Shown here piece after piece: positions 13,635 through 49,125 of a DNA stretch of 64,000 bases. This stretch comes from Nitrospirota bacterium (lineage in GTDB: Bacteria > Nitrospirota > JACRHJ01). The DNA is taken from positions 64,001-128,000 of the forward strand of contig CAWJRJ010000011.1 of assembly GCA_963845245.1 (NCBI GenBank). The letters are read 5' to 3'. The number at the start of each line of letters is the position of its first letter. Within the stretch, counting starts at the first letter, position 1. The notes under the pieces are model-generated. The model did no database searches. It was not told the DNA's origin and saw only the letters and a list, made by a program, of their open reading frames with translations. The translations under genes and the position numbers were made by a program.

Positions 13635-13754
13635 TCCATCTCCTCCAAAAACCCGTTTACATGAAATGTATCATTTTCTTTCCGATACAAAAAGTAAAAA
13701 ATGATATTATGGCATTGCATATTATCAGGAAGATACTAATGAACTCGGGATTAC

Positions 13755-13810
13755 AAAATAAAAAGGCCGCTTACGTTTCCGTAAGCGGCCTTTGGGCTTT
13801 TAGGTTCCCC
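13755..13810. repeat. Degenerate junction: type-A hairpin plus degraded tRNA 3'-end copy; also a likely terminator of the RND operon
   Basis: aaaataaaaaggccgcttacgtttccgtaagcggcctttgggcttttaggttcccc aligns with 36275-36328 (aaataaaatggccacttac...gtaagcggcctttggtcttttggctcccc). Confidence 0.75.
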
Positions 13811-20255: not shown

Positions 20256-20314
20256 TTTATATCATACTCGTCCACTATTTGTCAAGACCTTAGGATGTTC
20301 TTACTGATATCAAC

Positions 20315-20404
20315 AAATAAAATGGCCGTTTACATTGCTGTAAGCGGCCATTGCTTGGATGGCTCCCGGCGCGGGGTTATTAGAACCCTATTACGTGAAC
20401 CGCA
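20315..20404. repeat. Junction: type-A hairpin, tRNA 3'-end copy and degenerate, truncated tail
   Basis: aaataaaatggccgtttacattgctgtaagcggcc...tggctcccggcgcggggttattagaaccctatta aligns with 36275-36360, with 2 small deletions. Confidence 0.85.
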
Positions 20405-20407
20405 CTC

Positions 20408-20974
20408 TTACCTGACCAGGTTCAGTTTCGCTTTGGGTTGCTTTCGGGTGACCGTCATCTCCATTTCTTTCTCTTCCTTGCCCCCCTTTGGGGTAATGTA
20501 CATTTCATATTCCAAGGTATTGTCATCCACGATCCTGGTCACGCTACGCCAGTCAACCGGCCCCCTTACCGGGTCGTCATAGTTGCATTCCTGCGTGATG
20601 GTCTTGCCATCAGCGCTGGCGGTACCCTCGAAATAATAGATGGCGGTACTCATCGAGTCGACCCAGGTGGACACATACTTCCTGCTATGGTTGTCATACC
20701 CTATGAGGTTGATACCGGTGAACGGATTCCCCATCATGTCGCCGGTATACTTCTGCTGGAGATAACGTCCGTCGAGGATCATCTCCTGTTCACAGGTACC
20801 TGTGCTCTCCACCTGAGGCTTGCCGGGTTCCGTCCTTGCCCTGGTTATGGTAACCCAGCTTCCGGCCAGGCTAGCCAGCAGCTTGTGGGGTGCGCCTGGA
20901 ACCCCCAGCTTCCTGTATACCTCCATCATCGAATCCATGTCCATCTTCACCGCTTGATTTGTTCCTTTTTTCAT
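20408..20974 (-). CDS. DUF1579-family protein
   Basis: PGAPHKLLASLAGSW, MILDGRYLQQ, GYDNHSRKYVSTWVDSMST. Confidence 0.8.
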   Translation of the reverse strand: MKKGTNQAVKMDMDSMMEVYRKLGVPGAPHKLLASLAGSWVTITRARTEPGKPQVESTGTCEQEMILDGRYLQQKYTGDMMGNPFTGINLIGYDNHSRKYVSTWVDSMSTAIYYFEGTASADGKTITQECNYDDPVRGPVDWRSVTRIVDDNTLEYEMYITPKGGKEEKEMEMTVTRKQPKAKLNLVR

Positions 20975-21203
20975 CAGGGACCTCCTTCAGATGTCGATTA
21001 GAAACCCGCAAAAGTAGAGGTTACGGGTTTGCCGTCTGGCACCTTTTAATTATTGTTCCTATCTAGATATATAACAGATATGGCGCCCTGCGTCAAACTG
21101 CAGGGAAGCCGCAATGGAGGCTGCCAAAGTCAGGAAGACATGCTGATTTTTGGTGAGATATTGACTACTTTGGCCATGGCAATAGAGCTTTTATCATTAT
21201 AAA

Positions 21204-23200: not shown

Positions 23201-23365
23201 AAAATAAAAAGGCCGCTTACAGTGATGTAAGCGGCCATTGGTCTTTTGCTCCCCAGAGTGGACGTTTTTAGAACTTTATTGTTAGACCCAACGGGGGAGA
23301 TATTGAGTACTTTTGCAGCCGCAAAAGGCTTTAAGGAATCCGACAAGCAGATACAGATATTTTAA
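23201..23365 (+). repeat. Junction: type-A hairpin, tRNA 3'-end copy and intact coding-like tail
   Basis: Hairpin 23211-23236; 23246-23365 reads LLPRVDVFRTLLLDPTGEILSTFAAAKGFKESDKQIQIF*. Confidence 0.9.
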
Positions 23366-23369
23366 ACCC

Positions 23370-23516
23370 CTATTGCCTCTTCGCCAACTTTTCCGCCATC
23401 TTCCTGATGAATTTTAGCTCCTCAAGGCTCATCATGCGGGCCGCTTCTGTCAGGGCTATTATTTCTATGTCAGTTTGAGATTTAATATTCGCTCCGATGG
23501 TCTTTGGTAGTTCCAT
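23370..23516 (-). CDS. Small hypothetical protein (48 aa), possibly a relic of an element gene
   Basis: GGAGGG RBS; MELPKTIGANIKSQTDIEIIALTEAARMMSLEELKFIRKMAEKLAKRQ. Confidence 0.45.
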   Translation of the reverse strand: MELPKTIGANIKSQTDIEIIALTEAARMMSLEELKFIRKMAEKLAKRQ

Positions 23517-23538
23517 TTCCCCTCCGATTAAACTTAAT

Positions 23539-26500
23539 TCACTTTTTTGCCGCAACCCTGACCTCGGCCATGTGTTCCTGACGGTCGTCAACAAGGGGGA
23601 TAGCCTCACCCTGTTGCAGTATCCCGTCGACCGTCACGCTCGTCTCGCCTTTCTCATCGCGTGTTTGCAGGACGGTGATATGGTAGATAGTTTCCCTGTA
23701 CCGGTAGTGGATCTTGAACGTCTCCCAATCCTCAGGCAGGCATGGCGCGAAGCGCAGCTTGTCCACTTCGAGCCTCAGCCCCAGAAGTGATTCCAGGATA
23801 AGCCGGTACATCCAGCCGGCAGACCCCGTGTACCAGGTCCACCCGCCGCGGCCGATGTGAGGCGAGACTGCGTATACGTCGGCAGCGACAACGTACGGTT
23901 CAACTTTATAGGTCTCCATCTCTTCCCGGGATAACGCATGGTTCACCGGGTTGATCATCGTAAGCAGTTCCCATGCCCGCCTGCTGTCGCCTAATTGAGC
24001 GAAAGGCCATCGCAGCCCAGATTGCGCCATGCGTGTACTGCCCGCCATTCTCCCTCACGCCGGGGACGTACCCCTTTATATAGCCTGGGTTCAGATCCGA
24101 TTTGTCGAACGGCGGGTCAAGCAGCTGGACCAGGCGATGGTCGCGCCTTACCAGGCGCTTGTCCACCGCTTCCATTGCCATAGCCGAACGAGTGGCATCT
24201 CCGGCACCGGAGAGGACGGACCAGCTTTGCGAAATGGAATCAACCTGGCATTCTTCATTACTTGCCGAACCGAGCGGCAAGCCGTTGTCGAAGTAGGCGC
24301 GGCGGTACCAGCCGCCATCCCAGCCGTTCTTCTCGATATTCAGTCTCAGCCGGGCCGCCTCTTCCTGACAGTGTTCTGCAAATGTCAGGTCACCGCGCAG
24401 GCGTGCAATTTTGGCAAACTGCACGAGGACTTCGTAGAGGAAGAACCCAAGCCAGACGCTTTCGCCCTTGCCACCTGCGCCGACCATATTCATGCCGTCA
24501 TTCCAGTCACCCGAGCCGATGAGCGGCAGGCCATGCTCACCAAGGCTGACGCCCTTCATGATAGCCCGTACGCAGTGTTCGTAAAGATTGGCCGATTGTT
24601 CAGACTGTACTGGAAGGTCGTAATACGAGTCCTCGTCCGGGTTTACCTGGCGGCCCTTGATGTACTGGACAGGTTCGTCCAGCACCCCGGTATCCCCGGT
24701 GCCAAGGACGTAGCGGCATGCAGCCAGCGGCAGCCAGAGAAGATCGTCGGAACAGTGCGTGCGGACGCCTTGACCCAACGGAGGATGCCACCAGTGCTGA
24801 ACATCCCCCTCCTGGAACTGACGCGACGCGCACAGGAGCAGGTGTTCGCGCACGAGGCGCGGCTCTGAGTGGATAAGTGCCATCACGTCCTGCAACTGGT
24901 CGCGGAAACCGTAAGCGCCCCCTGACTGGTAGTATCCGCTTCTGGCCCAGAGGCGGCACGCCAGGGTCTGATATATCAGCCAGCCATTGGTCATTATGTT
25001 AACGGACTGGTCGGGCGTCTCCACCTGCACTGCGCCTAAAGTGTGGTTCCAGTGCTGCCAGACCATCTCTAGCGCGTCGCGCGCGGCGGCGGCCCCCCGG
25101 AACCGGAGTACCAGTTTGCTGGTGTCGTCGGCGTCCCGCCCAGCGCCGAGTCTGAAGATGACCTCGCGCTCCTGCCCGTCGGCAAGCTCAAAGGGGACCT
25201 GGATAGCGGCACAGGGGTCCAGGGCGGCCCCTACCCTGCCGGAAAGCCGTGAACGGGCCATCGCCGCCGGATTTTGAAGCGTGCCGTTGCGGCCAAGGAA
25301 CTCCGTCCGGTCGCCGCTCACGGTACGGGTCGCCTCATCCACGTCGAAGAAGGCGGTCCGGTCCGCGAACTTCGTATTATAGGGGTTCCGCGCGAATAGC
25401 GCGCCGCTGCCAGAATCAAGTTCAGTGATCACATGCATTGCCGTTTTTGACCGCAGATCTCCCAGTACCCATTCCACATAACCTGTAGCGGATAACCGGC
25501 GCGGTCTGCCTGACTCGTTTTTCACCTTCAACACCGTAAACTTGACCGATGCGTCCAGGGCCACGTATACCCACATCTCGGTACGTATGCCGTCCTCCAC
25601 GTGCTCAAAGACGCTGTATCCGAAGCCGTGGCGGCTGACGTAATGCATCATCCCACGGCTGGGCAGAGGCGTTGGGGACCAGAAGTGGCCACTCTCTTCG
25701 TCGCGGATGTAAAAAGCCTCTCCGCTGGAATCGCTTACCGGGTCGTTATACCAGGGAGTGAGGCGGAACTCATGGGCATTGTCTATCCAGGTGTAGGCGA
25801 GCCCGCTCTCCGAGATAACGGTCCCGAACTGCGGGTTTGCCAGGACATTCACCCATGGAGCCGGAGTCGCCTGATCGTGCGATGGTTGTAATTACGTATT
25901 CGCGGCCATCAGGCGTGAAACCGCCGAGTCCGTTAGAGAACAACAGGTCGCCGCGAGGCGTCGTAACGGCCGCGTGAGACTCTTTGCGGTAGGCCCGGGT
26001 CGGCGTGAGACGCGGCATGCTTGCCTCAGCGACACCGCGACGGTTAACAGACCAGATGACCTGGTCCACCAGTGTCCCCCGGCTGTCGGTGATGATGGCG
26101 CGGGCTACCGTCTTAAACAAGATGCGGTCCTCGTTCGATATCTGGTCTGCGGGTCTCACAAAAATGCCGCCCGGTTGATCCGCCGCAATCGATTCCAGGC
26201 CTTCGGCGATGAGCCCCAGTATCTGCTCTTGCAGAAGTTGCCTGTAACCGGCATGGTCCTCGTTCCAGATAACCAGGTCCACCGGCAGTCCTTTTAAGCG
26301 CCAGTATGCGTGGGCCCGTACGAGCTGGCGTACCAGTTCGATATTGGCCTGGTCTTCAATCTGCAACAACACGATAGGTAGGTCGCCCGAAATGGAATAG
26401 CCCCATAGACCGGATTGCCCTCTGCGGTTGCTGAGGATGACGCCCGTGTCGGCACGCAGCGAAGAATTGGAATATATCAGCGAACTGGCCAGGCGTCCGT

Positions 26501-29500
26501 AGAGTTGCGCGTCGGTCTCTGTGGCATTGATCTGTCGCAAGAGCACCTGGCTATGCGTCCATGCCAGGTCGAAGACACGGTCCGCGAGAAGCCGGTCCTG
26601 ATATTTCTCGATGAACCCCATACAGGCCTCTCGATTTTCTCCGACGCCGGTGACAATATTTATTGTGGCCGGCTTTTCCGGCTCCAGGGTTATCCTGTAG
26701 CGTACTGCGACAATGGGGTCCAGCACCGAGCCCTGGCTGCCTGAGAGCGCCCCAGAGGGGTTTGCGGTATAGTGCATAGCCTGCGGGTCAGCGACAGTGT
26801 TGCCTCGGCCTATGAACTGCATACGGTCGGTCTCATAGGAAGCCTCCCCGGCATCTGCACCGTGTACTGCCACCAGATGAAACATCCACGGCGCCTGCTC
26901 GTCTGAGGAACGGGGCCTGCGCGTGCAGAGTATGGCTCCCTGCTGGTGAATGATTTCGGTCTGGACAAACAGGTTGCTGAACGCCGGATGCAGTGCGTCC
27001 GATGCCGGAGATGCAAGGACCACTTCCGCGTAACTCGTTATATCTATCTCCCTGCGCGTCTGTGAGCGGTTCGTGATCGTTATCCGGCGCAGTTCGATGT
27101 CATCCTCGGGCGAAACTGTGATCTCCGTATGCATCTCAATATTGTTGTCCGTCCGGCGGAACTCCACTCTTGCTTCAGAAAAAATCGCTTCGTACTTCTT
27201 TTGCCGTTTGAGAGTCGGCTGATATGCGGTTGACCAGAACTCTCCGCTCGCCACGTCGCTGATGTAACAGAACGTGCCCCAATTATCGCAGGTACTGTCT
27301 TCGCGCCAGCGTGTAACCGCTATGTCTTTCCATCTGCTGTAGCCGCCCCCGGCGTTCGTGACCATCACGTGGTACCTGCCGTTAGACAATAGCTGTACCT
27401 CCGGGACCGGCGTGTCGGGACTGCCCAGTACGCGCACCGGCATCTCCTGGCCACCTGATGCAGAACGTATCTCTGACGTTTCGGCGGTGTGCGAATAAAA
27501 CGCCGTGGCCTTTGGCACACGCTCCTGTAGCAGTAGCATGGTTGCCTGGAACTCCGGGTCGGACTCGAACCGCTTCTGCATCTGACCGTCCAGGAGCAGA
27601 CAGGCCAACGAGAGAAGGCTCATTCCCTGGTGATGTGCCATGAAGGACCGGACTACTGCGCTCGACTGTCCGCGCGGCAGGCGGGAAGGAGTGTAGTCTA
27701 TCGCCTCATAGAAGCCATACCGGGTTTCAAGACCTTCTGCCGAGAGCCGTTGCAGGTTCGCGCAGGCCTCCTCGGGCGCCACCATCAGTGCAAGCGCCGA
27801 TGCATAGGGCGCAATGACCAGGTCCCCGGCGAGCCCGCGTTTAAGCCCCAGGTCAGGCACGCCAAACGCGCGGTACTGGTAGCTTAAATGAACATCAATC
27901 GTGTTGTAGCCGGATTCCGAAATACCCCAAGGCACCTTGTGCTTCTTTCCGTATTGAATCTGGCCGGCGACAGCCGCCTTGCAGGTCTGGTCCAGCAGCG
28001 TGTTTTTATACGTCGGCATCACCAAAAGCGGCATCAGATACTCAAACATCGATCCGCTCCATGAAAGCAGGACAGGGTCTCCACCGGTGGTGGTGAGCAG
28101 GCGTCCCAGAGCGAACCAGCTCTCCTGTGGCAGTTGTCCCTGAGCAATCCCTACGAAACAGCACAGCCTGGCTTCAGAGGCCAACAGGTCATAAAAACTC
28201 TCATCCAGCCGCCGCTCCCTGACGTTATACCCGATGGATAATAAATGACGTGCCTTGTCGAACAGAAAGTCATATTCCATGCGGGCGAACTCGCCGGACT
28301 GCAGTGCAAGCCTTTCAATTTCCGCAATCCTCAACTTGGCACGCTGGCCTGCCTCTGCAACAAGCTTTTTAAGCTCATCTGTCGGCAGCAACTCCGCCTC
28401 GATGTTGGACAGTTGGCGCAGAGTCTGGATTTCATGAAGGGCCGGGAACTCCCGGAAGCTATCAGGAGGATCCGGAAGCCTTGTCCATGGAGCGAGAATC
28501 ATCAGTTCATCTAGGGCTGTCTGGCACTGACCGGCGAAGGCACGTGCCCACCACAGGGCTTTGTTATCTATTACGTTACCGGCAGAATCGAGGGCAGCGA
28601 TTATGGCGACCAGTTCCGCAGCGGACGTTGCCAGGTGTTCAAGGCACTGCCGTGCTGCCATAAGAGTATCGGGTGGGTGATTATACGCTGACTCCGTATC
28701 CCTCTGAAGGCGGGCGAGCTGAGTGCCGGAGCGGTTCCTTCCGTGGCGTCCACGAGAATCCGCATGGTATCGCTGAGGCCGTCAAACAGACTCGCTCCCA
28801 GTATCTTCTGGTCGGGAAGCGCCAAAAGACCGGGCCGCAGAGTAAGCAGGCTGCCCGCAAGGTTACCACTGTCCACCGATGAAATGTAGGTGGGCAACAG
28901 CGGCTTTAAAGTTTGCGTATCGTACCAGTTATAAAAGTGGCCCCGGTGTTTTTCCAGGGCTTCCATTGTTTTAAATGCATTTTCGGTGCGTTCGATGAGT
29001 TGTCCGGCTACGATATAGCCAAAATCGTACGCGGATAAATTCGATAACAGCGCAAGCCCCATGTTGGTCGGCGACGTGCGATGGGCAACTACGGGAACGA
29101 GGATGCTCCTGATAGTTATCAGGCGGAAGCCAGTTATCTTCCGGGCCGACGAACGTCTCAAAAAATGCCCATGTCTTTCTGGAAAGCTTCCGGAGAAAAA
29201 TGGTCTGGTCAGCAGTCAGCCTTGCTTCGCGGCGGGCGATCGGCCGGCTGAGCCACCACGCGATAACAGGGGACGAAAACCAGAGACCCAATAGTGGACC
29301 AGCAACTCCAATAGTGGCTGGCCTCGAAAGGGCCAGTTGGACCGCTGCCGCAGTGGCAATTACTGGGGCGATCCACATTGACCGGCAGAAGCCTGCAAGG
29401 CTGGCCTTGCTGGCGCCACCGGTTTCGCTCGATGTACTCCATTCGAGAAGCCGTTTATGCGTGAATAGCATCCGCCACGCGGTGCGCACGATTGCGTCCA

Positions 29501-32279
29501 GACTGTAAAACGCCTCATAAGGCAGGCAGGCGAGCATAAATACAGCCTGGGCAGCGCTTACGCCGGTGGAACGGCCTACGGCAGCAAGATGCTGTCCAAG
29601 GAGCACATCCTTTGGCTTCTGAAGCAGATGCAAATATCGAGGTAATCAAAGAAGGTATCAGGATAATCCCGAACACTGACAAGGTCCAGAACAATGGCGC
29701 CGCCAAGACCGTCCAGCCGAGCAGCAGCAGGATTGTCAGCCCGGCAGGCACGAGACTGCGCCGAAGGTTGTCGAGGAGCTTCCATCGGGACAGCAACGAG
29801 AGCGGGTTCTTTTGAAAGCGGGCAAGGGTGCCCGGAACACCCGGCAGCAGCCATCGTACAAGCTGCCAGTCCCCGCGGATCCAACGATGCCGGCGGCTCA
29901 CATCCGCGCTGTAGCGGGACGGATATTCCTCGTACACCATTACATCGCTCAGAAGCCCCGCCCGCGCGTAACATCCTTCCAGCAGATCGTGGCTAAGGAT
30001 CCGGTTCTCAGGGAAACGCCCACCCAGCGCCATCTCGAATGCGTCAACATCATAGATGCCCTTGCCTATGAACGACCCTTCCTGGAACAGGTCCTGGTAG
30101 ACATCCGATACAACACGCGTATAAGGATCTATCCCCGGTTCACTGCCGAACATGCGCGCATACCGCGACCGGTTCGCACCGGGCAGGCTGACGGCCACAC
30201 GCGGCTGAAGTATGCCATATCCCTCACAGACGCGCTGTTTGTCTTTGTCGTAACGCGCACGGTTCAGAGGGTGCGCCATTGCACCCACAAGCTGCCAGGC
30301 ACTGTCGCGCGGCAGTTGAGTGTCAGTGTCAAGCGTGATCACGTACTTCACACTTGATAATACCGCAGTATCACCGACTATGAGCGAAAAGTGCTCTTTT
30401 GTGGCACCATCTGCTCCGGCGCGCAGTAAAGAGTTTAAGTTCCGAAAGCTTGCCACGCTTGCGCTCGTATCCCATCCAGATACGGTCCTGGGGATTCCAT
30501 AGGCGCGGGCGATGGAAAAGGAAGAACGTATCGCCTTTTGAACTCCCGTACTTTTCATTCAGTTCCTCGATTCTCTGCCGTGGCCAGCAGCAGAAGCGGT
30601 TCGTCCTCGGGCAGCGTTTCGCTGTCCGCGTCCCGAAAATCAGTCAGCAGGCCGAAGTGCAGGTTGTCGTCACGGTTTGCCAGGAACCTGACTTCCAGCG
30701 CCTCGACCAGGTCCTCGATGTTTTGAGCGCTTATGAGCATGGTCGGGACAACTGTCAGAGTCCGCGATTCAGGCGGTATACCTTTGGAGAAATCCATCCG
30801 CGGCAGCGGGTGCGGTGTCGCGAGCAATGTGACCAGCCAGTTCACCAGGGCCACGGACAGGTGACTTGCGCACAGAAGCGAGAGGACACCTGTCAACACG
30901 AGTACCCAGCCATACAGCCCGGCAGCATGTGCCTTAAATAATACGCTCCCCGTGAAGGCCGCTGTAATCAACATAATACTGCCGATATACATCAGCAAAG
31001 GAAACCGTGCGGCCCATTTCCGAAGGGCCTCAAAGACGGATAAGCGTCACTTCTGCCAGTCGCTCAAGCTGCGCCAGTCCATTGCCTATCAAGGTAATAG
31101 CCCACATGTGCCGAGCGGCTGTCGAGGCCTTGTTTGTCGTCTTTGCTGGCCGCGCTTTCATGCGCAAGCCTGATTGCTTCGGCCGCAACCTCGCTCTCCG
31201 ATAACGGGCTTTTCTTTGCTATCTTCTCTACAGCGTGGCGGTAACGGTCACGCGTGGAAAAATCCATCTTGCCGTAGACACCATCGGTGTCCTCACGCAG
31301 GGTCTGTTCGACAATGCTCATCGTCTCGACGAATTCGCGCCAATCCATTGCGCCAAGGAAACGGAGGCTGCCGATACTGTTGCTCATCGAGACTTGATCA
31401 GCGGCCTGTTGTTGGTTCTGCGACTGCACCAGTTGCTTGATTGTCAGGCCGGACTCGGACAGCCGCTGCTCGATCCAGGTAAGAGGCAATGCAAGGGCAG
31501 GGCCCTTGTCCCTGGAGCCGGCGCGTGAGTTCCGCAACAAACGAACTAACCATCGGCGGTTCCGACCGCGCCATGTCGGCAATCACAAGAATCAGGCTCT
31601 TCGGGTCCTTTTCCGCGGTTTCCGTCATCAGGTCAGCCCAGTAATCGGCACTGTTTCGGTCGAGCCTGTCAGTGGCGATCCGGGCCGCAACCCGCCGGAG
31701 GTTCTCGATCAGTGCCAGGCGCAGCATGATGGGGATTGCCCACAACTCGCCTAATTTCAGGCTGGTGACTGTCTGGTAGGCCGTTACAAAACCGCTGAGG
31801 TTCTCCGGGTCTACCCGCCCATCGCCATGTGAAATCGTTTCCAACGCAATGTCGTATACGCGCGGAAGACCGGCCGAAGGACCATTTTGCAGGCGAGGCA
31901 GTTCCCGGCTGTAACCTTTTGGCAAATGCCTTCTCGCCGTGCGAATCTGCTCTTCAATCAGATAGAAGTTGTCGAGCAGCCATTCCCCGGCCGGTGTAAT
32001 GCTGCGGTTTGTCTTGACCGCCTCTGCCAGGAGGTTGCGGGCTTTAAACAGTACGCCTTCGTTCTCGGCCAGCCGGGCCAGCAGCTGTTCCGAAGCATGA
32101 CCCGGGCTCAATTTGTGCGAACCGGCCAATTCCTTGCCATGCTGCTCCATCTGATAGGCGCTGAGCAACTCCGACCGAAGCGGCGGCTCGTCGCCGATGC
32201 ACTTTTGCGCTACGTCGTAACCGCTGAAGCTCGCCCTTAAATTGAGCAGGTACTTGAGAATAGTACTATTCTCCTTCAC
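23539..32279 (-). CDS. ndvB: Cyclic beta-1,2-glucan synthase/phosphorylase (Cgs/NdvB/ChvB; GT84 plus GH94), about 2900 aa, split by about 8 frameshifts
   Basis: EWLLDNFYLIEEQI, LGELWAIPIMLRL, VITLDTDTQL, LSHDLLEG, SWSGSMFEYLMP, YYQSGGAYGFRDQLQD, GSGDWNDGMN, GWTWYTGSAGW. Confidence 0.92.
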
Positions 32280-32450
32280 GATTCATTCCGATCTTTTGTA
32301 ATAGGAGCCTCGCCCTGAAATGTATTTGCGTTTACAACCGGTCTTGGGTAGCTATATCTCCGGCGTGGAGAACAATAAGAAGTATATCAGATGTACTTCG
32401 GTGAGGCCTTGCGCAGGGGAGGAGCTCGGTAGGTATCTCTTGTATGAGAC

Positions 32451-32479
32451 ACTATAGCCTCTTATTCATAGTAAGTCAA
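32451..32479 (-). promoter_or_regulatory. Putative sigma70 promoter for the glucan synthase, implying a leader of about 165 nt
   Basis: Minus strand TTGACT-17 nt-TATAGT. Confidence 0.55.
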
Positions 32480-32686
32480 TGTAAAACGGCTTTAACTATT
32501 TGAAATAACGGGATTTTGAATGTCGTGTGTTCTTTGTGAATTCTCTACCTGCACCTGTACTGTCGGGTTCGGTCATGTTTTACATGCTTTATGGGTGAGT
32601 TTATTTCGCTATGAATTAATGGTATGAACCGCAAGCCCTTGAGTCATTTGATGTGCTGAGGGGTAGGTTTAGGGAAGGTCCGGGAG

Positions 32687-33322
32687 TTATTTAAGAGCGG
32701 GAAACAGATGGACCAGCCCTCCGGCAATGAACTCTACGGAGATGGCCGCCAGCAGCAGTCCCATAAGTCGCGTTGCGATATTGATTGCGGTTTTGCTCAT
32801 TATTTTGCTGAGAGGGTCGGCGACAAGCAGCGCAACCCACGTCAATAATGCTACCAATAAGGTGATAAAAATAATCAAGCCGATATGCAGCGGCTGAAAC
32901 GATGCATGCGAATAGATTATCACCGTTGATATTGCACCCGGCCCGGCCAGAAGCGGCATGGCAATCGGTACAACGGCGATACTCTTCTTATCTTCGGCTT
33001 CCGTGGCCTCTTCTGGCGTCTGCCTGCCCTGAGTATTTTTGGCCTGCATCATGGAGATTGCCATCAGCATTAATAGGATACCGCCACCAACCTTGAACGA
33101 ATCGATGCTGATACCAAAAAAACTCAGTAGTATCGTACCCATAAGGGTAGCTGCAATTAAAATCAGGGCGACTGCTACGCTTGTTGTCTTCGCTATATTA
33201 CTGCGTTCCTGTGCTGACATATTATTGGTAAGGCTGACAAAGACAGGAATCACTCCGATAGGGTTTACTATCGACAGGAGTGCTGTAAATATTTTTATAT
33301 ACACTGTCCAATCGAGCATCAC
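32687..33322 (-). CDS. marC: MarC-family membrane protein
   Basis: IVNPIGVIPVF, FKVGGGILL, VPIAMPLLAGPGAISTVI, RLMGLLLAA. Confidence 0.92.
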   Translation of the reverse strand: MMLDWTVYIKIFTALLSIVNPIGVIPVFVSLTNNMSAQERSNIAKTTSVAVALILIAATLMGTILLSFFGISIDSFKVGGGILLMLMAISMMQAKNTQGRQTPEEATEAEDKKSIAVVPIAMPLLAGPGAISTVIIYSHASFQPLHIGLIIFITLLVALLTWVALLVADPLSKIMSKTAINIATRLMGLLLAAISVEFIAGGLVHLFPALK

Positions 33323-33442
33323 TTGTATCGTCCTTCAGCCCTCACCGTCCGACCAGATTGCAACCGTTGTACTAGTTCCAATTGTATCACACCTTATTAT
33401 TTTATTGCCCCGGCAACTTGACATGCGAATACCCTTGACAAG

Positions 33443-33591
33443 AAAAGGGGTTACGCTGTAAAGCGCAACCCCTTGATTTTTTTTGGCTCCTCCGCGTGGA
33501 CGATATTAGAACTTTATTGCTTGACCCGACAGGGGAGATATTGAGTACGTTTGCAGCCGCAAAAGGCTTTGAGGACGCCGGATTAACTTAA
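33443..33591 (+). repeat. Junction: type-B hairpin (near-copy of the hairpin beside the tRNA), tRNA 3'-end copy and intact tail
   Basis: 33443-33490 nearly equals 37137-37182; 33484-33591 reads WLLRVDDIRTLLLDPTGEILSTFAAAKGFEDAGLT*. Confidence 0.92.
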
Positions 33592-33760
33592 GCGGCTACT
33601 CCAGAACACGTATTTTAACTCCCGCAAAGAGATAAGAAGGCAGGAGTAAAAGCAGGGCCGATACAGGAGGACAGAACTACACTTCTGTGATAATATAAAT
33701 AAATAATCCCCATTACTCTCAAACAATTTAAATAACTTTTATCGCGGCGGCTATTCTTGA

Positions 33761-35986
<2,226 letters not shown>

Positions 35987-36062
35987 TCTTGTGAGTTGGC
36001 AATTAAAGTTGACCCGCGATTGGAGCCCAAACTGCATCACTTTCTGGCGTGCTATTAAAGAC

Positions 36063-36104
36063 AAAGACTTACGGTAACACCCGTAAGCCCTTGATTTTTG
36101 GTAG
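36063..36104. repeat. Variant junction-like hairpin followed by cttgatttttggtag
   Basis: cttacgg-taacac-ccgtaag then cccttgatttttgg, resembling the type-B junction but with a different base run after tgg. Confidence 0.45.
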
Positions 36105-36274
36105 AAGGTGAGCCATTTTGGGCACCGACTCACACTATTGGCTATACAATGCCCGCCTAAAAAGTCAAGGGCAGAGCGGACTCGAACAATGTAACATGCT
36201 GTAATTATTAGACAAAATGTGTTTTGTTGGTATAGGGATGGTATCGGGCAGTTATTATCTAACTCAGAATTACC

Positions 36275-36436
36275 AAATAAAATGGCCACTTACATCGCTG
36301 TAAGCGGCCTTTGGTCTTTTGGCTCCCCAGCGCGGACGTTATTAGAACTTTATTGCTTGACCCAACCGGGGAGATATTGAGTACGTTTGCAGCCGCGAGA
36401 GACTTTCAGGCCAACAGGCTTACCCGCAAAACATAA
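36275..36436 (+). repeat. Junction: type-A hairpin, exact 9-nt tRNA 3'-end copy and intact tail
   Basis: tggctcccc at 36320; 36320-36436 reads WLPSADVIRTLLLDPTGEILSTFAAARDFQANRLTRKT*. Confidence 0.92.
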
Positions 36437-36588
36437 CTCGTCTGAAAAACATGCGGCTGAAGCGCTTCCCCTGCTTTTTTCTTGACTTGAAGTTCTGCGT
36501 ATGAGAAAAGTACGGTCGACGAAGTTGTTGCTCTTTTAATGGGGCTGTTTGTCTCTGATAATACTCTCTCACGCTGAGGGAAAGTTTT

Positions 36589-37095
36589 GTGAAAAAAGCG
36601 GTTATCATGATCATGACGCTGGCGCTGGCCTTCGGGCTAGTGGCTACAGGCTGCAAGGACAAATTCAAGAAAGACTTCAAGACGCTCCTTGAGGAGGGCC
36701 GTATCGCGTACAAGGCTGGAAACTATCCGAAGGCCCTTGATGCATACGTTACCGCGGCAGAGATCAGCCCGATGGACCCCAGACCACAGTTTTACCAGGG
36801 CAATGTGCTGTACACCATGGGTGAGGTCAACGAGTCTGTACAGGCATTTGACAAGGCCATCGCCTTGGCCCCGACAATCGCCCAACCATACTTTAACAGG
36901 GGCATAGCGCTCGCCCGCCTGAAACGCTACGACGAATCGGTAGAGTCGTTCAACAAGGCGATCGAGCTCAGCCCCAACCAAGTCAAGGCTATATATAACA
37001 AGGCGCTAAGACTGGACAAGAAGGGCAAGAAGGACGAGGCGCGGGCCGCGTTCGACGAGGCGGCAAACCTTGACCCCCAGTACAAGAATAAGTAG
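36589..37095 (+). CDS. TPR-repeat lipoprotein
   Basis: Signal peptide ending ATGC; 3-4 TPR motifs (FDKAIALAP, FNKAIELSP). Confidence 0.88.
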   Translation: MKKAVIMIMTLALAFGLVATGCKDKFKKDFKTLLEEGRIAYKAGNYPKALDAYVTAAEISPMDPRPQFYQGNVLYTMGEVNESVQAFDKAIALAPTIAQPYFNRGIALARLKRYDESVESFNKAIELSPNQVKAIYNKALRLDKKGKKDEARAAFDEAANLDPQYKNK

Positions 37096-37138
37096 TTAAG
37101 CGCACAAGATAGGTTAGCCGAGGGATTATTTAAAACAA

Positions 37139-37168
37139 AAGGGGTTACGCTGAAAAGCGAAACCCCTT
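37139..37168 (-). terminator. Type-B hairpin/terminator downstream of tRNA-Asn
   Basis: Minus strand aaggggtttcgcttttcagcgtaacccctt followed by T-rich sequence. Confidence 0.75.
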
Positions 37169-37175
37169 GATTTTT

Positions 37176-37251
37176 TGGCTCCCCGGGCCGGACTCGAACC
37201 AGCGACAAGGTGGTTAACAGCCACCTGCTCTACCAACTGAGCTACCGGGGA
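37176..37251 (-). tRNA. tRNA-Asn (GTT)
   Basis: TCCCCGGTAGCTCAGTTGGTAGAGCAGGTGGCTGTTAACCACCTTGTCGCTGGTTCGAGTCCGGCCCGGGGAGCCA; 76 nt cloverleaf with encoded CCA. Confidence 0.97.
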
Positions 37252-37479
37252 TCGGTAGTAACTGACATAAGCCGTGGCGGCGGTAATCGCCCCGACAGAC
37301 CGTTACTTTTACCACAGGCTAAACCCTCTTGTCAAGCCTCTTTTCCTTTAAACAGGTTCGCAACCCCCACTCAGCCTATATAGATATAAATTTAGATTAT
37401 CACCTGTCATTTATGATATATTTGTAAAGAGGTTGAAGGAATCCATAACACCTGATATTTCTTAAAAAAAACCCTTTAC

Positions 37480-45064: not shown

Positions 45065-45252
45065 GTTATTTACCGTCCTTTATAAAGTATTAAGACCCCG
45101 CATGTGCGGGGCCTGTTGAAGCTTGGGTAATTATACATTGGCGGGGGATGGGAGGGCAAGAAATAAAAATGTACACTTCTTGGTGTCATGCTTTGATAAG
45201 AAATAATTGCTTTTAATAATATTTAATATATTATATGTTTTGGGAGGGCATA

Positions 45253-46731
45253 ATGAGTCTTTTTTTTGTTGATAGATTTTACGATGGAATCTTCGGTTTT
45301 ATTGAATTAACCGCTATAGAAAATGAAATAGTTAATACACCCATCTTCCAGCGGCTACATCATATAAATCAGTTAGGATTAGCACAAATAATTTTCCCAA
45401 ATGCAACACATACTCGTTTCTCACATTCGTTGGGAGTTCTAAAAATAATTGATAAAATGATTTTGCAATTAAATAACAAGGCTCGAGAAAAACGCATAGC
45501 TGATGATTTTATCAACGATAAAGCCCGCCAAATTCTTCGGTTAGCTGCATTGCTTCATGATGTTGGACACCTACCTTTTTCGCATGCAGGAGAAAATGCA
45601 ACAGAAGCTTTCGAAAAATCAGCGGATAGAGAGGTGGTTAAAAAGGGGGCTGCCCCTTCTTTGCCTGATGAAAAAGTTCACAACTTTAAACTTCATGAAG
45701 AATTATCCAGGCATATTGTAATTAACTTTAACGATGTAACTGACGTGTTGAGAAAACATTATTCTCAAGAAGATATAATGGAAATCGGTAACATAATTTA
45801 TGGAAAATCAGCAAATCCTCTTTTTAGTTCTTTGCTCCATTCTGAATTAGATGCTGACAGACTTGATTATCTAATTAGAGATTCCAGCTTCACTGGTGTT
45901 GTCTACGGAAAAGTTGAGATTGATCAAATAATTTCAAAATTAGATTTTCTTCAAAACGCTGATGGAATAATACTAGGTGTAAAAGCTAAAGGCATCCATG
46001 CCGTAGAACACTATTTACTCTCAAGATATTACTGGTATTCTCAGATTTTAAATTACCCGAAAATGCTTTATATCGATAAGATATTACAAAAAGTTTATCA
46101 GTTTATGATAGGGCAAGGCATTTTACCAAATAAAAAGAATTTAATGGATGCCATTGAAAAAAATAATCATCACGCAATTCTTGATTTCAACGACCACTTA
46201 GTTTTGACAGAAATGCGTAGATTGCATGATAAATTTGATAAAGAAAAAGACAAGCTAGCAGGAGAAGCGTTATTTATAAACAATGCTATTAAAATTTTGC
46301 TTTCTGGCAAAATACCTGAACCTATCATAGTTAGGCAACAAATTATCGAACAGGAAAAAGCAACTGATAGGAAAACAATTTGTGAAAAGGAAATTCTACA
46401 ATTAAGAGATAAATTTGCCGAAGAAACTGGCATTTCTAAACATTACATAGATTATATCTTCATTGATTCAAAGATAAGCAAAGCGAAGGCAACGGAAGAT
46501 GGTTCTGCGCAGGCAATTCCAGACGTAACAAACGAAGCAATTAAAGTTATTGACTCTTTTAAAGAACCGCCTTATTATTATCTAGTAGATAATAAAAGTA
46601 CACTAATAAACAAATTAAGCCACTTACAATTACAGAGTTTTTATTTATTTGTAACTTATCCAGAACGAGATGATAGGTTTAATTCCTTATTTCGTAACAT
46701 TGATAGTGCGTTGATGCCTTTATTTGATTAA
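45253..46731 (+). CDS. HD-domain phosphohydrolase, dNTP triphosphohydrolase (YwfO/SAMHD1-like)
   Basis: FQRLHHINQLG, HTRFSHSLG, LLHDVGHLPFSH, HEE, DADRLDYLIRD; strongly AT-rich; GGAGGG RBS before 45253. Confidence 0.9.
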   Translation: MSLFFVDRFYDGIFGFIELTAIENEIVNTPIFQRLHHINQLGLAQIIFPNATHTRFSHSLGVLKIIDKMILQLNNKAREKRIADDFINDKARQILRLAALLHDVGHLPFSHAGENATEAFEKSADREVVKKGAAPSLPDEKVHNFKLHEELSRHIVINFNDVTDVLRKHYSQEDIMEIGNIIYGKSANPLFSSLLHSELDADRLDYLIRDSSFTGVVYGKVEIDQIISKLDFLQNADGIILGVKAKGIHAVEHYLLSRYYWYSQILNYPKMLYIDKILQKVYQFMIGQGILPNKKNLMDAIEKNNHHAILDFNDHLVLTEMRRLHDKFDKEKDKLAGEALFINNAIKILLSGKIPEPIIVRQQIIEQEKATDRKTICEKEILQLRDKFAEETGISKHYIDYIFIDSKISKAKATEDGSAQAIPDVTNEAIKVIDSFKEPPYYYLVDNKSTLINKLSHLQLQSFYLFVTYPERDDRFNSLFRNIDSALMPLFD

Positions 46732-46745
46732 ACAAAGAGGAATAT

Positions 46746-47231
46746 ATGATATCGAATCCTGCTAAATTAAATCTGTTTTTTAATCGGTTAGATTGGTTAA
46801 AAATAGAGGACATGTCCAACAGGATAATCTTACAGAAAACAATTTTTATTCTGCAAGAATTGGGGTTAGATTTAAACTATAATTTTAATTGGTACATTTA
46901 TGGACCATATTCGCCATCTTTAACAGAGGACGCTTTTGAACTAAAGCAGAATGAAAAAACATATAGAGAAGAATCCGACGAATTCAATTTGAGTGATCAT
47001 GCACAAAAAATAATTGAGCGATATAATTCTATTTTTGGTGCAAAAAAAGAAGACTCCGTTTGGCTTGAATTAATTGCCTCTTTGTTATTCCTACGAAAGT
47101 TTTATTCAAAAACTAATTATGATGATCTAAAAGCATTTTTATTGGAAAAAAAACCAAAGTTCGAAAGTAATCCATCTTTAGTTAACGATGCAATAAATTT
47201 TCTTAAAGAAAATTTGCCCGCAACCACTTAA
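46746..47231 (+). CDS. YwgA-like protein (related to the SocA/Panacea-type winged helix)
   Basis: RIILQKTIFILQ, YNFNWYIYGPYSPSL, WLELIASLLF; 14 bp downstream of the HD gene. Confidence 0.7.
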   Translation: MISNPAKLNLFFNRLDWLKIEDMSNRIILQKTIFILQELGLDLNYNFNWYIYGPYSPSLTEDAFELKQNEKTYREESDEFNLSDHAQKIIERYNSIFGAKKEDSVWLELIASLLFLRKFYSKTNYDDLKAFLLEKKPKFESNPSLVNDAINFLKENLPATT

Positions 47232-47260
47232 TCTATATTTGAGCTTTACTTTTATATTAG

Positions 47261-47290
47261 AAAGCCGCCATTTGCTTTAGGCGGCTTTTT
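47261..47290 (+). terminator. Intrinsic terminator
   Basis: aaagccgcc...ggcggcttttt. Confidence 0.8.
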
Positions 47291-47415
47291 ATATTTTCTC
47301 TCCCCTTACTCACTCTTTTTTCCCGTCTGTTTTTCTCCTGTATATAAGCTATATTTTATTTGACTTTGCCTATTTTTAGGTATATGAATACCTCTAACCA
47401 AAGTGAGGTGTTAAT

Positions 47416-48339
47416 ATGGCCGGAGCATTTACGCACTTTCTAATTTGTGAAAAAGCAATAAGCGAGAAGCATGCCCTGGGTACAGAGTTATGGCAATTTG
47501 TAAACAACAACTCCCAATATATATCCATCGGGGCTGCAAGCCCTGACCTGCCGTATCTCAGTCCCCCTACCGGTGACGTCAAATGGGCTGACGTGATGCA
47601 CTACGAAAAAACAAACGGTATCGCCACTAAAGGCTACGAGGAATTAAAAAGCCGGTGGCTTTTAAAAACGCAAGCCGAAGATGTTAAGCTTGCCTGGTTA
47701 ATGGGTTTTATTTCTCATCTGATTGCAGACGCTACCATTCACCCTATTGTCAAAGCCATTGTCGGAGATTATGACACGCATAAAATCCCGCACAGAAACT
47801 GTGAGATGACCCAGGATGCGATTTTGTTTAATGAAATAATGGGAAACGAAATCAATTATGCGGAATTTTCTGAACAGTTAAAATTTTGTAAAGCATCTGC
47901 TCATTTTGATGCATTAATGGAGTTCTGGAAAAATCTATTAAAGGGCAACTACACCAAAGATGATGAACCCCATCCCACCTTATGGTTTGACACCTACACC
48001 GAAGCTATCGATTTGGCAGAAGGGGGTTCGGATATTGTCGCTATATTCAGGCATTGTGGAGTAGGTCTTTGTTATAACCGTAGCGATCTAATTCCTGCCG
48101 GTGACCGAAAACTTTATTATGATAACGTAAAACTTCCTACTGGCAAATTTGGGAATTTTATGGATGATGGTTTTTTGAAAACGGTAAAGAATGTAACTGA
48201 TGTTTGGAGCTTACTTTATTCAAATTTAAACTCAAAAACCACACCTACTGTTTTAGCAGTGAACTCTTTAAAAGACTGGAATCTCGACACCGGGGTAGAT
48301 ATGGCATCTGCCGCCAATGAAATTACCTACTGGGCCTAA
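47416..48339 (+). CDS. Zinc-dependent phospholipase C/P1-nuclease-fold protein
   Basis: N-terminal FTH, GAASPDLPY, MHY, GFISHLIADATIHP, HRNCE..D metal-ligand pattern; no signal peptide. Confidence 0.75.
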   Translation: MAGAFTHFLICEKAISEKHALGTELWQFVNNNSQYISIGAASPDLPYLSPPTGDVKWADVMHYEKTNGIATKGYEELKSRWLLKTQAEDVKLAWLMGFISHLIADATIHPIVKAIVGDYDTHKIPHRNCEMTQDAILFNEIMGNEINYAEFSEQLKFCKASAHFDALMEFWKNLLKGNYTKDDEPHPTLWFDTYTEAIDLAEGGSDIVAIFRHCGVGLCYNRSDLIPAGDRKLYYDNVKLPTGKFGNFMDDGFLKTVKNVTDVWSLLYSNLNSKTTPTVLAVNSLKDWNLDTGVDMASAANEITYWA

Positions 48340-48341
48340 TA

Positions 48342-48764
48342 ATGAAAAAAATACTATTGTCTTTTGTTCTGCTTATCTTCATTTCTACGAATGCATGCGC
48401 GACTCTATCGGAACAACAGAGGCGCGAGTATGGGGTACTTTCAGAGGCGGCCCAATCCTCGGCTCAAAAGATTAACGGTTATTTCGGGGATAACATACCA
48501 GACGATTTAAACGGGGAACAGTTGTTGGCGATTGTCAAAGATAAAATACCATCATCTTACTATGATGAGCTGGCTCAATATTCTTTAGAAGTCAGGCCCA
48601 AGAAAACCTATTATCTCTTGCTAGTCTATAAGCCAGGAACTAAAGATATAATTTTATTTGATTACAGTTGCACGCCGAAAGCCGATGGCACTGTATTATT
48701 GACTCCCGAGAAATACGATTTGAATAATTTAGACCTTTATGACCAGTGCAAGGGAGGCTTCTAA
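48342..48764 (+). CDS. Hypothetical exported protein (possible lipoprotein)
   Basis: Signal peptide MKKILLSFVLLIFISTNAC; starts 2 bp after the PLC-like stop. Confidence 0.7.
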   Translation: MKKILLSFVLLIFISTNACATLSEQQRREYGVLSEAAQSSAQKINGYFGDNIPDDLNGEQLLAIVKDKIPSSYYDELAQYSLEVRPKKTYYLLLVYKPGTKDIILFDYSCTPKADGTVLLTPEKYDLNNLDLYDQCKGGF

Positions 48765-48795
48765 AACCTCCACACAAAATCATTCTGTTTTAAAG

Positions 48796-48825
48796 AAGCC
48801 GCTTTCCTCAAAGGCGGCTTTTTTT
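48796..48825 (+). terminator. Intrinsic terminator
   Basis: aagccgct...ggcggcttttttt. Confidence 0.75.
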
Positions 48826-48897
48826 ATTTCCCCTCTTCCTCAACAAAAAAGGCGCACTATAAAATGCGCCTTAAGCGTACCTTTTTAAGGACAAAGT

Positions 48898-49125
48898 TCA
48901 CGCCGCTTTCTTGCCTTCAGCGAGCGCCTTTACGTCCTCTGTGGTCAAGGTTTTCCCGGCAATGCCCCAATCGCCGCTCTTCACTTCTTCCACTATGCAC
49001 GTCGTAACCTCACGCATGTTCTCCCCTTCCACGGAGACCATCGCGTCAGTGAGTTTTTTCACAATCTCTTGCTTCTGCTTGGGCGAAAATACACCCTCGA
49101 TAAGCTTGACCTGAATTAACGGCAT
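48898..49125 (-). CDS. 4-oxalocrotonate tautomerase family protein
   Basis: Pro after the initiator Met (MPLIQVKLIEG), EEVKSGDWGIAG; 75 aa. Confidence 0.88.
   Translation of the reverse strand: MPLIQVKLIEGVFSPKQKQEIVKKLTDAMVSVEGENMREVTTCIVEEVKSGDWGIAGKTLTTEDVKALAEGKKAA

Follow-up and report, generated by a model that had tools for sequence, protein, structure and literature searches.

Start-less, codon-like tails stacked on a tRNA-Asn gene of a Nitrospirota bacterium: probable severed ends of large serine recombinase genes

The 64,000-nucleotide stretch of DNA analysed here (the window, hereafter) comes from a Nitrospirota bacterium (GenBank assembly GCA_963845245.1, contig CAWJRJ010000011.1, positions 64,001 to 128,000 of the forward strand) and belongs to a genome bin of 2.88 Mb in 37 contigs, 90% complete and with 5.2% contamination. 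It carries an intact tRNA-Asn gene and, next to it, an array of short units, in each of which a frame devoid of a start codon follows a copy of the tRNA tip. Here, I describe these units together with the gene blocks that they bound, and argue that the start-less frames are probably the cut-off last ~35 codons of large serine recombinase (LSR) genes, from elements once inserted at tRNA-Asn. The features concerned are the following:

37176..37251, minus strand: intact tRNA-Asn(GTT), called by ARAGORN; Rfam tRNA match of 66.5 bits
37129..37175, minus strand: terminator hairpin of type H2, immediately downstream of the tRNA-Asn; repeat family D4, 90% identity to 33435-33482
36320..36436, plus strand: tail 1, an 18-nucleotide (nt) core and a start-less frame of 38 codons, then TAA
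36269..36319, minus strand: hairpin of type H1 with spacer, preceding tail 1; repeat family D2, terminator-like stem at 36309-36284
33484..33591, plus strand: tail 2, core and a frame of 35 codons ending in TAA
33435..33483, minus strand: hairpin of type H2, preceding tail 2; repeat family D4, terminator-like stem at 33474-33445
23246..23365, plus strand: tail 3, core with TTG replacing TGG and a frame of 39 codons ending in TAA
23196..23245, minus strand: hairpin of type H1, preceding tail 3; repeat family D2
20309..20401, plus strand: first part of the broken tail 4, with H1 hairpin, core (1-nt deletion) and first 9 tail codons; core and codons at 20363-20401
21152..21202, plus strand: second half of the broken tail 4, reading G-E-I-L-T-T-L-A-M-A-I... 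to the stop; repeat family D3, sequence-model match at 21152-21191 (E 0.0024)
13751..13799, plus strand: tail-less H1-type hairpin with degenerate core; overlap with the 3' end of an outer-membrane efflux gene

The tRNA-Asn at 37176..37251 is the integration target, its 3' tip bearing the common core TTTTGGCTCCCC, and the real tRNA is the sole match of an Rfam scan. Three whole units (at 36320, 33484 and 23246) and a broken one (20363 and 21152) are held by the window. In each of them a G+C-rich hairpin, a tRNA-Asn-like core and a tail of ~90 nt follow one another in register, an order maintained in all of the DNA copies collected (7/7). The core comprises 18 nt resembling the antisense of the tRNA 3' end, the first 12 of which (TTTTGGCTCCCC, spacer included) are identical to the real tRNA junction, and it recurs as a direct repeat at 20363, 23246, 33484, 36320 and 37176 (repeat family D5 and alignment). 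The tail reads ...V-D-V-I-R-T-L-L-L-D-P-T-G-E-I-L-S-T-F-A-A-A-K-G-F..., with a stop within 2-10 codons thereafter; its ends (RKT, GLT, QIF, RVF, EEI and SFQ) are in no case ssrA-like. An earlier reading of the letters alone (the sequence-only reading) had pointed to three start-less frames closed by TAA, and these are indeed 38 (36320), 35 (33484) and 39 (23246) codons long; the broken fourth copy, the terminator hairpin before every copy and the hairpin with degenerate core at 13751, possibly the array's outermost relic, come in addition to what it had noticed.

The unit hairpins scan as minus-strand terminators and are of two sequence types, succeeding one another along the array as H1, H1, H2, H1, and then H2 at the tRNA; the bin has two real tRNA-Asn genes, the one in the window with hairpin H2 and the one on contig C35 with H1. 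A case in point as to their origin concerns G008, a genome with one copy of the tail, and its congener G006: the H3 hairpin and flank found in G008 before core and tail are found in G006 before an intact tRNA-Asn, hence the hairpin at such a junction is the tRNA's own terminator. Past its tail, the G008 contig continues for 1.5 kb, through a Fic gene, before it breaks off.

Several copies are altered. A 1-nt indel in the C-run of the copies at 20363 and in metagenome contig L036 puts the peptide of the core, W-L-P, out of the tail frame, the copy of genome G003 has an in-frame TGA, and the halves of tail 4 are separated by ~750 bp with a DUF1579 gene (20408-20974, minus strand; Pfam). The TGA in G003 and the interruption of tail 4 amount to decay, as one would expect of stranded tails that have gone out of use. 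As to the interrupting segment (20402-21151), it holds the DUF1579 gene and its upstream region, lies between the Pro and Gly codons of tail 4 and has a right edge (GATTTTTGG) that resembles the hairpin-core spacer; judging from this likeness, it may be a secondary-site insertion.

The divergence of the tail is coding-like. The set compared consists of seven DNA copies, namely three from the window, one from genome G008 and three from contigs of one metagenome. Over the 18 codons RTLLLDPTGEILSTFAAA the three window copies differ pairwise by 3, 4 and 4 synonymous and 0 non-synonymous codons, which bears out the synonymous-only differences claimed in the sequence-only reading, and the synonymous excess persists across the collected copies: over the seven, the ratio of non-synonymous to synonymous change (pN/pS) amounts to 0.28 in the plus frame and to 0.37 in the antisense frame whose wobble positions coincide with those of the plus frame, the four remaining frames lying at 0.89-1.84. 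When the 27 variable columns were re-dealt over the 72 positions, the observed synonymous share was reached in 3 out of 20000 trials, a figure prior to correction for six frames and for the choice of the region by the sequence-only reading. By codon position, the variable columns number 7, 6 and 14 (of 24 each), a modest skew. The plus frame is favoured by the first-position changes in Leu codons (CTT/TTA and TTG/CTG), silent in that frame only, by the similarity among copies, which ends 2-10 codons before the plus-frame stops, and by the minus frame, which in 4/7 copies has no start upstream of the conserved part. The start codon of the plus frame is itself unconserved (GTG at codon 5 in 6/7 DNA copies; Ala or Ile in c36320, P0005 and P0006) and a terminator hairpin lies 10-15 nt upstream of the tails, both of which make translation of the tail in place unlikely. 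A minus-strand RNA structure, with acceptor-stem-like TCCCCGG/CTGGGGA pairing, was also considered and rejected: the variable position is a Thr wobble, there is no covariation, and Rfam recognises the real tRNA only.

Between the units lie blocks of unrelated genes. The 20-40 kb portion of the window encodes (Pfam) a histidine kinase, a fragmented GH94/GT2 glucan-synthase-like gene, MarC, a catalase-peroxidase and a TPR protein, and the blocks next to the tRNA are composed as follows:

36320..37175, plus strand: 856-bp block with tail 1, TPR-repeat gene (36589-37095; Pfam TPR), hairpin H2 and core
33592..36268, plus strand: block between tails 2 and 1, with catalase-peroxidase gene (33794-35986; Pfam peroxidase), hairpin and tRNA-like debris
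23366..33434, minus strand: block between tails 3 and 2, with a small open reading frame (ORF) of 48-79 amino acids (aa), the fragmented GH94/GT2 cyclic-glucan-synthase-like gene and a MarC-family gene

The blocks are flanked by direct repeats of the core, with no recombinase domain between. Contig C35 of the bin, 23 kb long, is collinear with the window over 36025-64435 at 82-93% identity and with several indels; from the sequence it probably represents a second strain in the bin, a large duplication being the alternative. In C35 the region downstream of the catalase, with its H1 hairpin, is joined straight to tRNA-Asn, the 856 bp from 36320 to 37175 being absent, and the two BLAST alignments with the window that flank this block overlap only on the core. 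A contig from sequencing run X5 has the identical joint (36311 to 37171), also without the 856-bp block, whose gain or loss falls exactly at the core repeats, as seen for one of the four blocks (1/4). In metagenome contigs, tail 3, the small ORF and the GH94 end stand behind H1 and a different gene (L035) or behind H2 (L036), while in L034 the start of the glucan synthase is followed by H1, core and tail, and then by stress-protein and regulator genes. From these neighbour combinations (C35, X5, L034-L036) it follows that the units bound gene blocks differing in order and presence among relatives. In run X4 position 23236 is joined to 20382, which may reflect a circle, a duplicated segment or blocks in a different order; the share of sampled words present in the sequencing runs did not exceed 0.17.

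What kind of gene ends in such a tail is suggested by relatives that still read into a tRNA. The antisense peptide of the tRNA-Asn tip was used as a query against 401 Nitrospirota genomes and the lengths of the frames were inspected, whereby long frames entering tRNA-Asn came up in G055 (539 aa), G071 (554 aa), G123 (204 aa) and G001 (193 aa), the last being of the window's family and of the genus of G008. The full-length proteins of G055 and G071 have the domains Resolvase, Recombinase and Zn_ribbon_recom, and the frames of G001 and G123 share 51-57% identity with the C-terminal part of the G055 protein. The recombinase stop lies inside an opposite-strand tRNA gene at 23 of the 31 Nitrospirota loci with LSR homologues (Asn 11, Gln 4, Ser 3, Glu 2, Asp 1, Ala 1, Arg 1), the remaining 8 of the 31 not showing this. 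These frames cross TGG, the antisense of CCA, and in 11/11 tRNA-Asn cases they read W-L-P (once C-L-P) in the register of the window tails, TGG-CTC-CCC coding for W-L-P in the tails and in the LSR frames entering tRNA-Asn alike. The antisense of the window's own tRNA-Asn (37176-37251) reads W-L-P-G-P-D-S-N-Q-R-Q-G-G-stop in the register of the tails, just as the sequence-only reading had it; its motif WLPxxD, on the other hand, taken there as a signature of recombinase C-termini, turns out to be the antisense of the tRNA tip. In G001 and G071 the recombinase frame also crosses the hairpin beside the tRNA, from which it appears that the hairpin serves both as a variable protein linker and as the tRNA's new terminator. 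Closely related LSRs diverge in pairs only past W-L-P: G262 has the tRNA-coded end where G288 has 16 other residues, and G031 and G039 differ likewise. The far junction of the G071 element was not found within 60 kb with a sequence model and 9-20-mers.

A related phage group offers the gene in its unsplit and split states. LSR relatives are encoded in 24 viral contigs (35-58% identity by best segment), some of them split at tRNA-Gln or tRNA-Leu and others with native tails of ~30-38 residues. In one group, whose enzymes are 41-42% identical to that of G055, the LSR frame of record G403 is unsplit and 532 aa long; in provirus G402 the tail (74% identity, query residues 12-45) is found in a 40-aa frame ~31 kb from the recombinase; and in record G401 it shares the strand of the recombinase but lies at the contig end opposite to it. 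The far junction of G402 is composed of terminator hairpin, tRNA tip, tail and stop, namely the architecture of the window units.

Each unit is thus probably the far, tRNA-distal junction of an element that an LSR inserted at the 3' tip of tRNA-Asn. The element's attachment site (attP) would fall within the recombinase gene itself, in its final ~35-50 codons, and in the excised element this gene would run from the recombinase body through a short variable linker, the terminator hairpin, and the W-L-P of the tRNA-like core into a native tail of ~30-35 codons and its stop. Integration would sever the gene at the core: the body would stay by the tRNA, ending in ~13 tRNA-antisense codons, and the native tail, deprived of a start codon, would be stranded at the far end, preceded by the former tRNA terminator and by a duplicate of the tRNA tip. 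The tails would look coding-like since their divergence would have occurred within working recombinase genes. In the window the recombinase bodies would be gone, three whole tails and a broken one separating integrase-less blocks stacked on tRNA-Asn. Most simply, the blocks are decayed or cis-mobilizable remnants of successive insertions; decay of successive insertions and cis-mobilizable blocks, the latter by analogy with the ssrA islands of Dehalococcoides, would both fit. Independent arrivals of related elements, as proposed in the sequence-only reading, may have taken place and would agree with the stacked array.

Searches with the tail returned short frames beside a tRNA-like core. Against 1.84 billion representatives, the tail profile gave three hits at E <=0.001, that is one unrelated repeat protein and two short frames of 84 and 54 aa, which again read hairpin, W-L-P and tail. 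Its only GTDB genome was G008, its JGI metagenome hits were three contigs of one sample, and its strong hits in the 401 Nitrospirota genomes were limited to G000 (the window's genome) and G008. In viral contigs neither the profile nor an IUPAC pattern found anything, and BLASTN of the unit against plasmids and phages gave no match. The tail peptide had only two chance hits in Pfam at E up to 10 (E 0.15) and no usable match in the ESM Atlas, and the minus-frame peptide found nothing in a word-indexed search of longer proteins, a null that the tool grades weak. To the left of the intact tRNA-Asn at 37176 the frame measures 27 aa, and no recombinase body reads in. Weak matches in frames of 660-1600 aa had suggested a PAS domain, an idea that was dropped, as no PAS family came up in the Pfam search and one such PAS-like match, on inspection, proved to be fortuitous, in a fusion of transaldolase and isomerase.

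A second tRNA-linked element of the genome, namely a tyrosine integrase with tRNA-Leu(CAA), is found on contig C17 (L030 925-2193), where the 383-aa integrase gene converges on the tRNA 3' end, with its stop 30 nt short of it. This integrase was rejected as a source of the tails, for it has an ordinary end with no likeness to them, and the putative far repeat of its element was rejected as a chance match within a gene.

A number of observations weigh against assigning the window tails to LSRs. Neither the window (Pfam) nor the genome as assembled, 90% complete and searched with PF00239, yielded a serine recombinase, the one resolvase of G008 is a 261-aa frame 159 kb away, and no protein longer than 147 aa bearing this tail was found, nor did a word-indexed search of longer proteins with the tail yield anything, a null that the tool itself grades as weak. 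Run over the 526,944 residues of 87 fetched loci, the tail profile hit no recombinase C-terminus and matched significantly only the genome's own copy; it likewise gave no hit in G055 or in the closest LSR group, represented by four viral records; the alignment of the tail to the C-terminus of the G299 LSR (hhalign, E 0.054 over 13 columns) is not significant. To the left of every hairpin here there is an ordinary gene or stop codons; four blocks must therefore have lost their recombinase bodies at similar end points, which the model leaves unexplained. Among the relatives, the DNA of the G288 tail was unmatched at E up to 1 in G392, G262, G362 and G336 (three of them with a split relative), where only the 31 nt on the recombinase side matched, and the tail of a second phage group, sought in two records, was not found. 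Lastly, pN/pS alone does not separate the plus frame (0.28) from the shared-wobble antisense frame (0.37). The claim of the sequence-only reading that attP lies in the 3' end of a serine recombinase gene is supported in kind, by the relatives, including one of the window's own family, and by the phage set with its unsplit gene, split gene and stranded tail; for the window itself, no recombinase was found in the assembled genome, no protein with this tail in the searches, and no significant similarity to the recombinase C-termini examined.

Could the conserved ~90 nt be something other than a severed recombinase end? They might be the element-side arm of a recombination site, as in an integron-like cassette array, with the tail akin to the cassette site attC and the codon pattern produced by chance from non-coding constraint. 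The location of all copies between unrelated blocks, in one orientation and beside a tRNA, would suit such a site, as would the unconserved start codon, the lack of a promoter-like site in the scanned 33300-37400 (tails 1 and 2), the modest codon-position skew and the missing parent gene. It nevertheless appears unlikely, for it accounts neither for the outcome of the permutation (3/20000) nor for Leu changes that are silent at the first position in the plus frame, nor for a similarity that stops where the plus frame stops, and the like architecture in provirus G402 is demonstrably a severed recombinase tail. That the severed gene is not a recombinase gene but another one spanning attP, e.g. 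a repressor gene as in the integration-dependent immunity of phage BPs, is a further explanation which I regard as improbable. The 33 C-terminal repressor residues removed on BPs integration are close in length to the tails (as excerpted from PMC4557955), and no sequence link was found between the window tails and a recombinase; yet all four long frames (>=190 aa) into tRNA-Asn that were examined are LSRs or LSR fragments, an ssrA-like end, expected of a split repressor of that kind, is found in none of the window-type tails, and no repressor-like frame abuts tRNA-Asn at those inspected.

Very improbable, finally, is that the tail is a gene on its own terms, either a small one translated in place (31-36 codons from the core GTG) or the end of a minus-strand gene. 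In the block shared by the window, L035 and L036, synonymous and non-synonymous changes stand at 5:6, 5:8 and 7:9 against a neutral expectation of ~1:3, and the shared-wobble minus frame is open, with the low ratio given above. Yet a small gene would follow a terminator at a distance of 10-15 nt, would have neither a promoter-like nor a ribosome-binding sequence and would start at an unconserved GTG, a minus-strand gene would be start-less upstream of the conserved part in 4/7 copies and would run into the variable hairpins, and neither frame has a relative in Pfam, the Atlas or the protein collection. The severed end of an LSR gene is hence retained as the probable origin of the tails.

Some further observations concern the blocks. 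The GH94/GT2 cyclic-glucan-synthase-like gene (23539-32279, minus strand; ~2900 codons) is spread over at least 6 overlapping ORFs, and at several of the break points the contigs of relatives show single-base indels; it is either a pseudogene or the product of assembly indel errors. A contig of run X6, of low depth (2.3), joins 23605 to 32362 with 9 other letters, which implies a relative without the whole glucan-synthase gene. Just inside tail 3, a 48-aa ORF of unassigned family (23370-23516, minus strand; L035 964-1110) is kept in L035 (ORF call) and L036 (DNA alignment), and may be a remnant of the original element. Downstream of the catalase-peroxidase, at 36050-36200, a further H2-like hairpin is followed by TTTTTGG and by a T-arm-like GCGGACTCGAAC fragment, all conserved in C35; the hairpin and fragment may be older tRNA-derived scars. 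Beyond the tRNA, the region 45100-49000 is low in GC (0.34 at 46-48 kb) and holds a zinc phospholipase-C-like gene and ORFs without an assigned family, in place of which C35 has ~1 kb.

A wider proposal, which I put forward tentatively, is that a broad clade of bacterial and phage LSRs has attP in the 3' end of its own genes, that a built-in switch results when ~13 tRNA-antisense residues take the place of the ~35-residue tail, and that stranded tails with their hairpins act as attP-like sites for cassette-like capture of blocks at tRNA-Asn. A C-terminal switch, of directionality or of enzyme stability, had been suggested in the sequence-only reading too. The excised form might be competent for integration or short-lived, and the integrated one might differ from it in activity or in stability, while the attP-like sites would permit capture and reshuffling of blocks devoid of a recombinase, much like integron cassettes. 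As to protein ends, the native tails of the unsplit phage LSRs L169, L176, L178, L179, L182 and L183 terminate in ...YAAA, ...FDFAA, ...LKLVA or ...KNAV. Several viral native tails end in ...VA, ...AA or ...CA, endings which I take to resemble ssrA-like degradation tags; this likeness, if true, would fit a stability switch.

Should the proposed origin of the tails be correct, start-less codon-like repeats by tRNA fragments are the footprint of past serine-integrase elements whose integrase is lost, and the self-splitting of recombinase genes extends to the serine enzymes of bacteria and their phages. Genome integration is a common application of LSRs, and a natural swap of the C-terminus on integration would give a simple handle on their directionality or turnover. 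Genome annotation is concerned as well: recombinases at tRNA junctions are called with tRNA-encoded C-termini, their true ends lying tens of kilobases away. A full-text search of the literature found no description of self-split genes for serine recombinases, which is not a proof of absence.

Among known systems, the array resembles integrons and clusters of attC sites without an integrase, in that blocks in one orientation are set apart by a conserved junction and vary in content between relatives. Unlike them, it has no intI-type tyrosine integrase (PF00589 is unmatched in the window, and the four matches that the genome has above the family cut-off are on other contigs) and no attI, and its junction is made of a tRNA tip and a recombinase tail, not of a folded attC. 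Stacked islands are likewise known at ssrA in Dehalococcoides; according to the excerpted text of PMC3146451, they are bounded by copies of the 3' end of the RNA gene, have a conserved element-side motif and carry a CcrB-like serine recombinase at the edge, and 15 of them without an integration module have been proposed to be cis-mobilizable elements (CIMEs). Here, by contrast, no block has a recombinase, and the element-side stretch is ~90 nt long and codon-like.

As regards genes that are split by their own integration, the excerpt of a review (PMC8371274) describes archaeal tyrosine integrases of the SSV type, with the recombination site in the integrase gene, which is split on integration into a tRNA gene, and calls self-disrupting recombinases exclusive to archaea. 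These 'suicidal' integrases are tyrosine enzymes of archaea, whereas the split genes of the relatives described here encode serine recombinases of bacteria and phages, and only a short C-terminal tail is removed. In mycobacteriophage BPs (PMC4557955, as excerpted) the gene containing attP is that of the repressor, which on integration loses 33 C-terminal codons, left stranded, and whose product thereby changes its properties; attP is inside a reading frame, as here, but it is the repressor that is split, the integrase is separate, and the lost tail is ssrA-like tagged. The LSRs of phages and other elements share with the junction genes of the relatives the domains Resolvase, Recombinase and Zn-ribbon and the position at the element edge, by the target; what sets the present case apart is that attP would be within the recombinase frame, integration swapping the last ~35 residues for tRNA-antisense codons. 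To sum up, the finding combines known kinds, namely large serine recombinases, self-split integrases and tandem tRNA islands.

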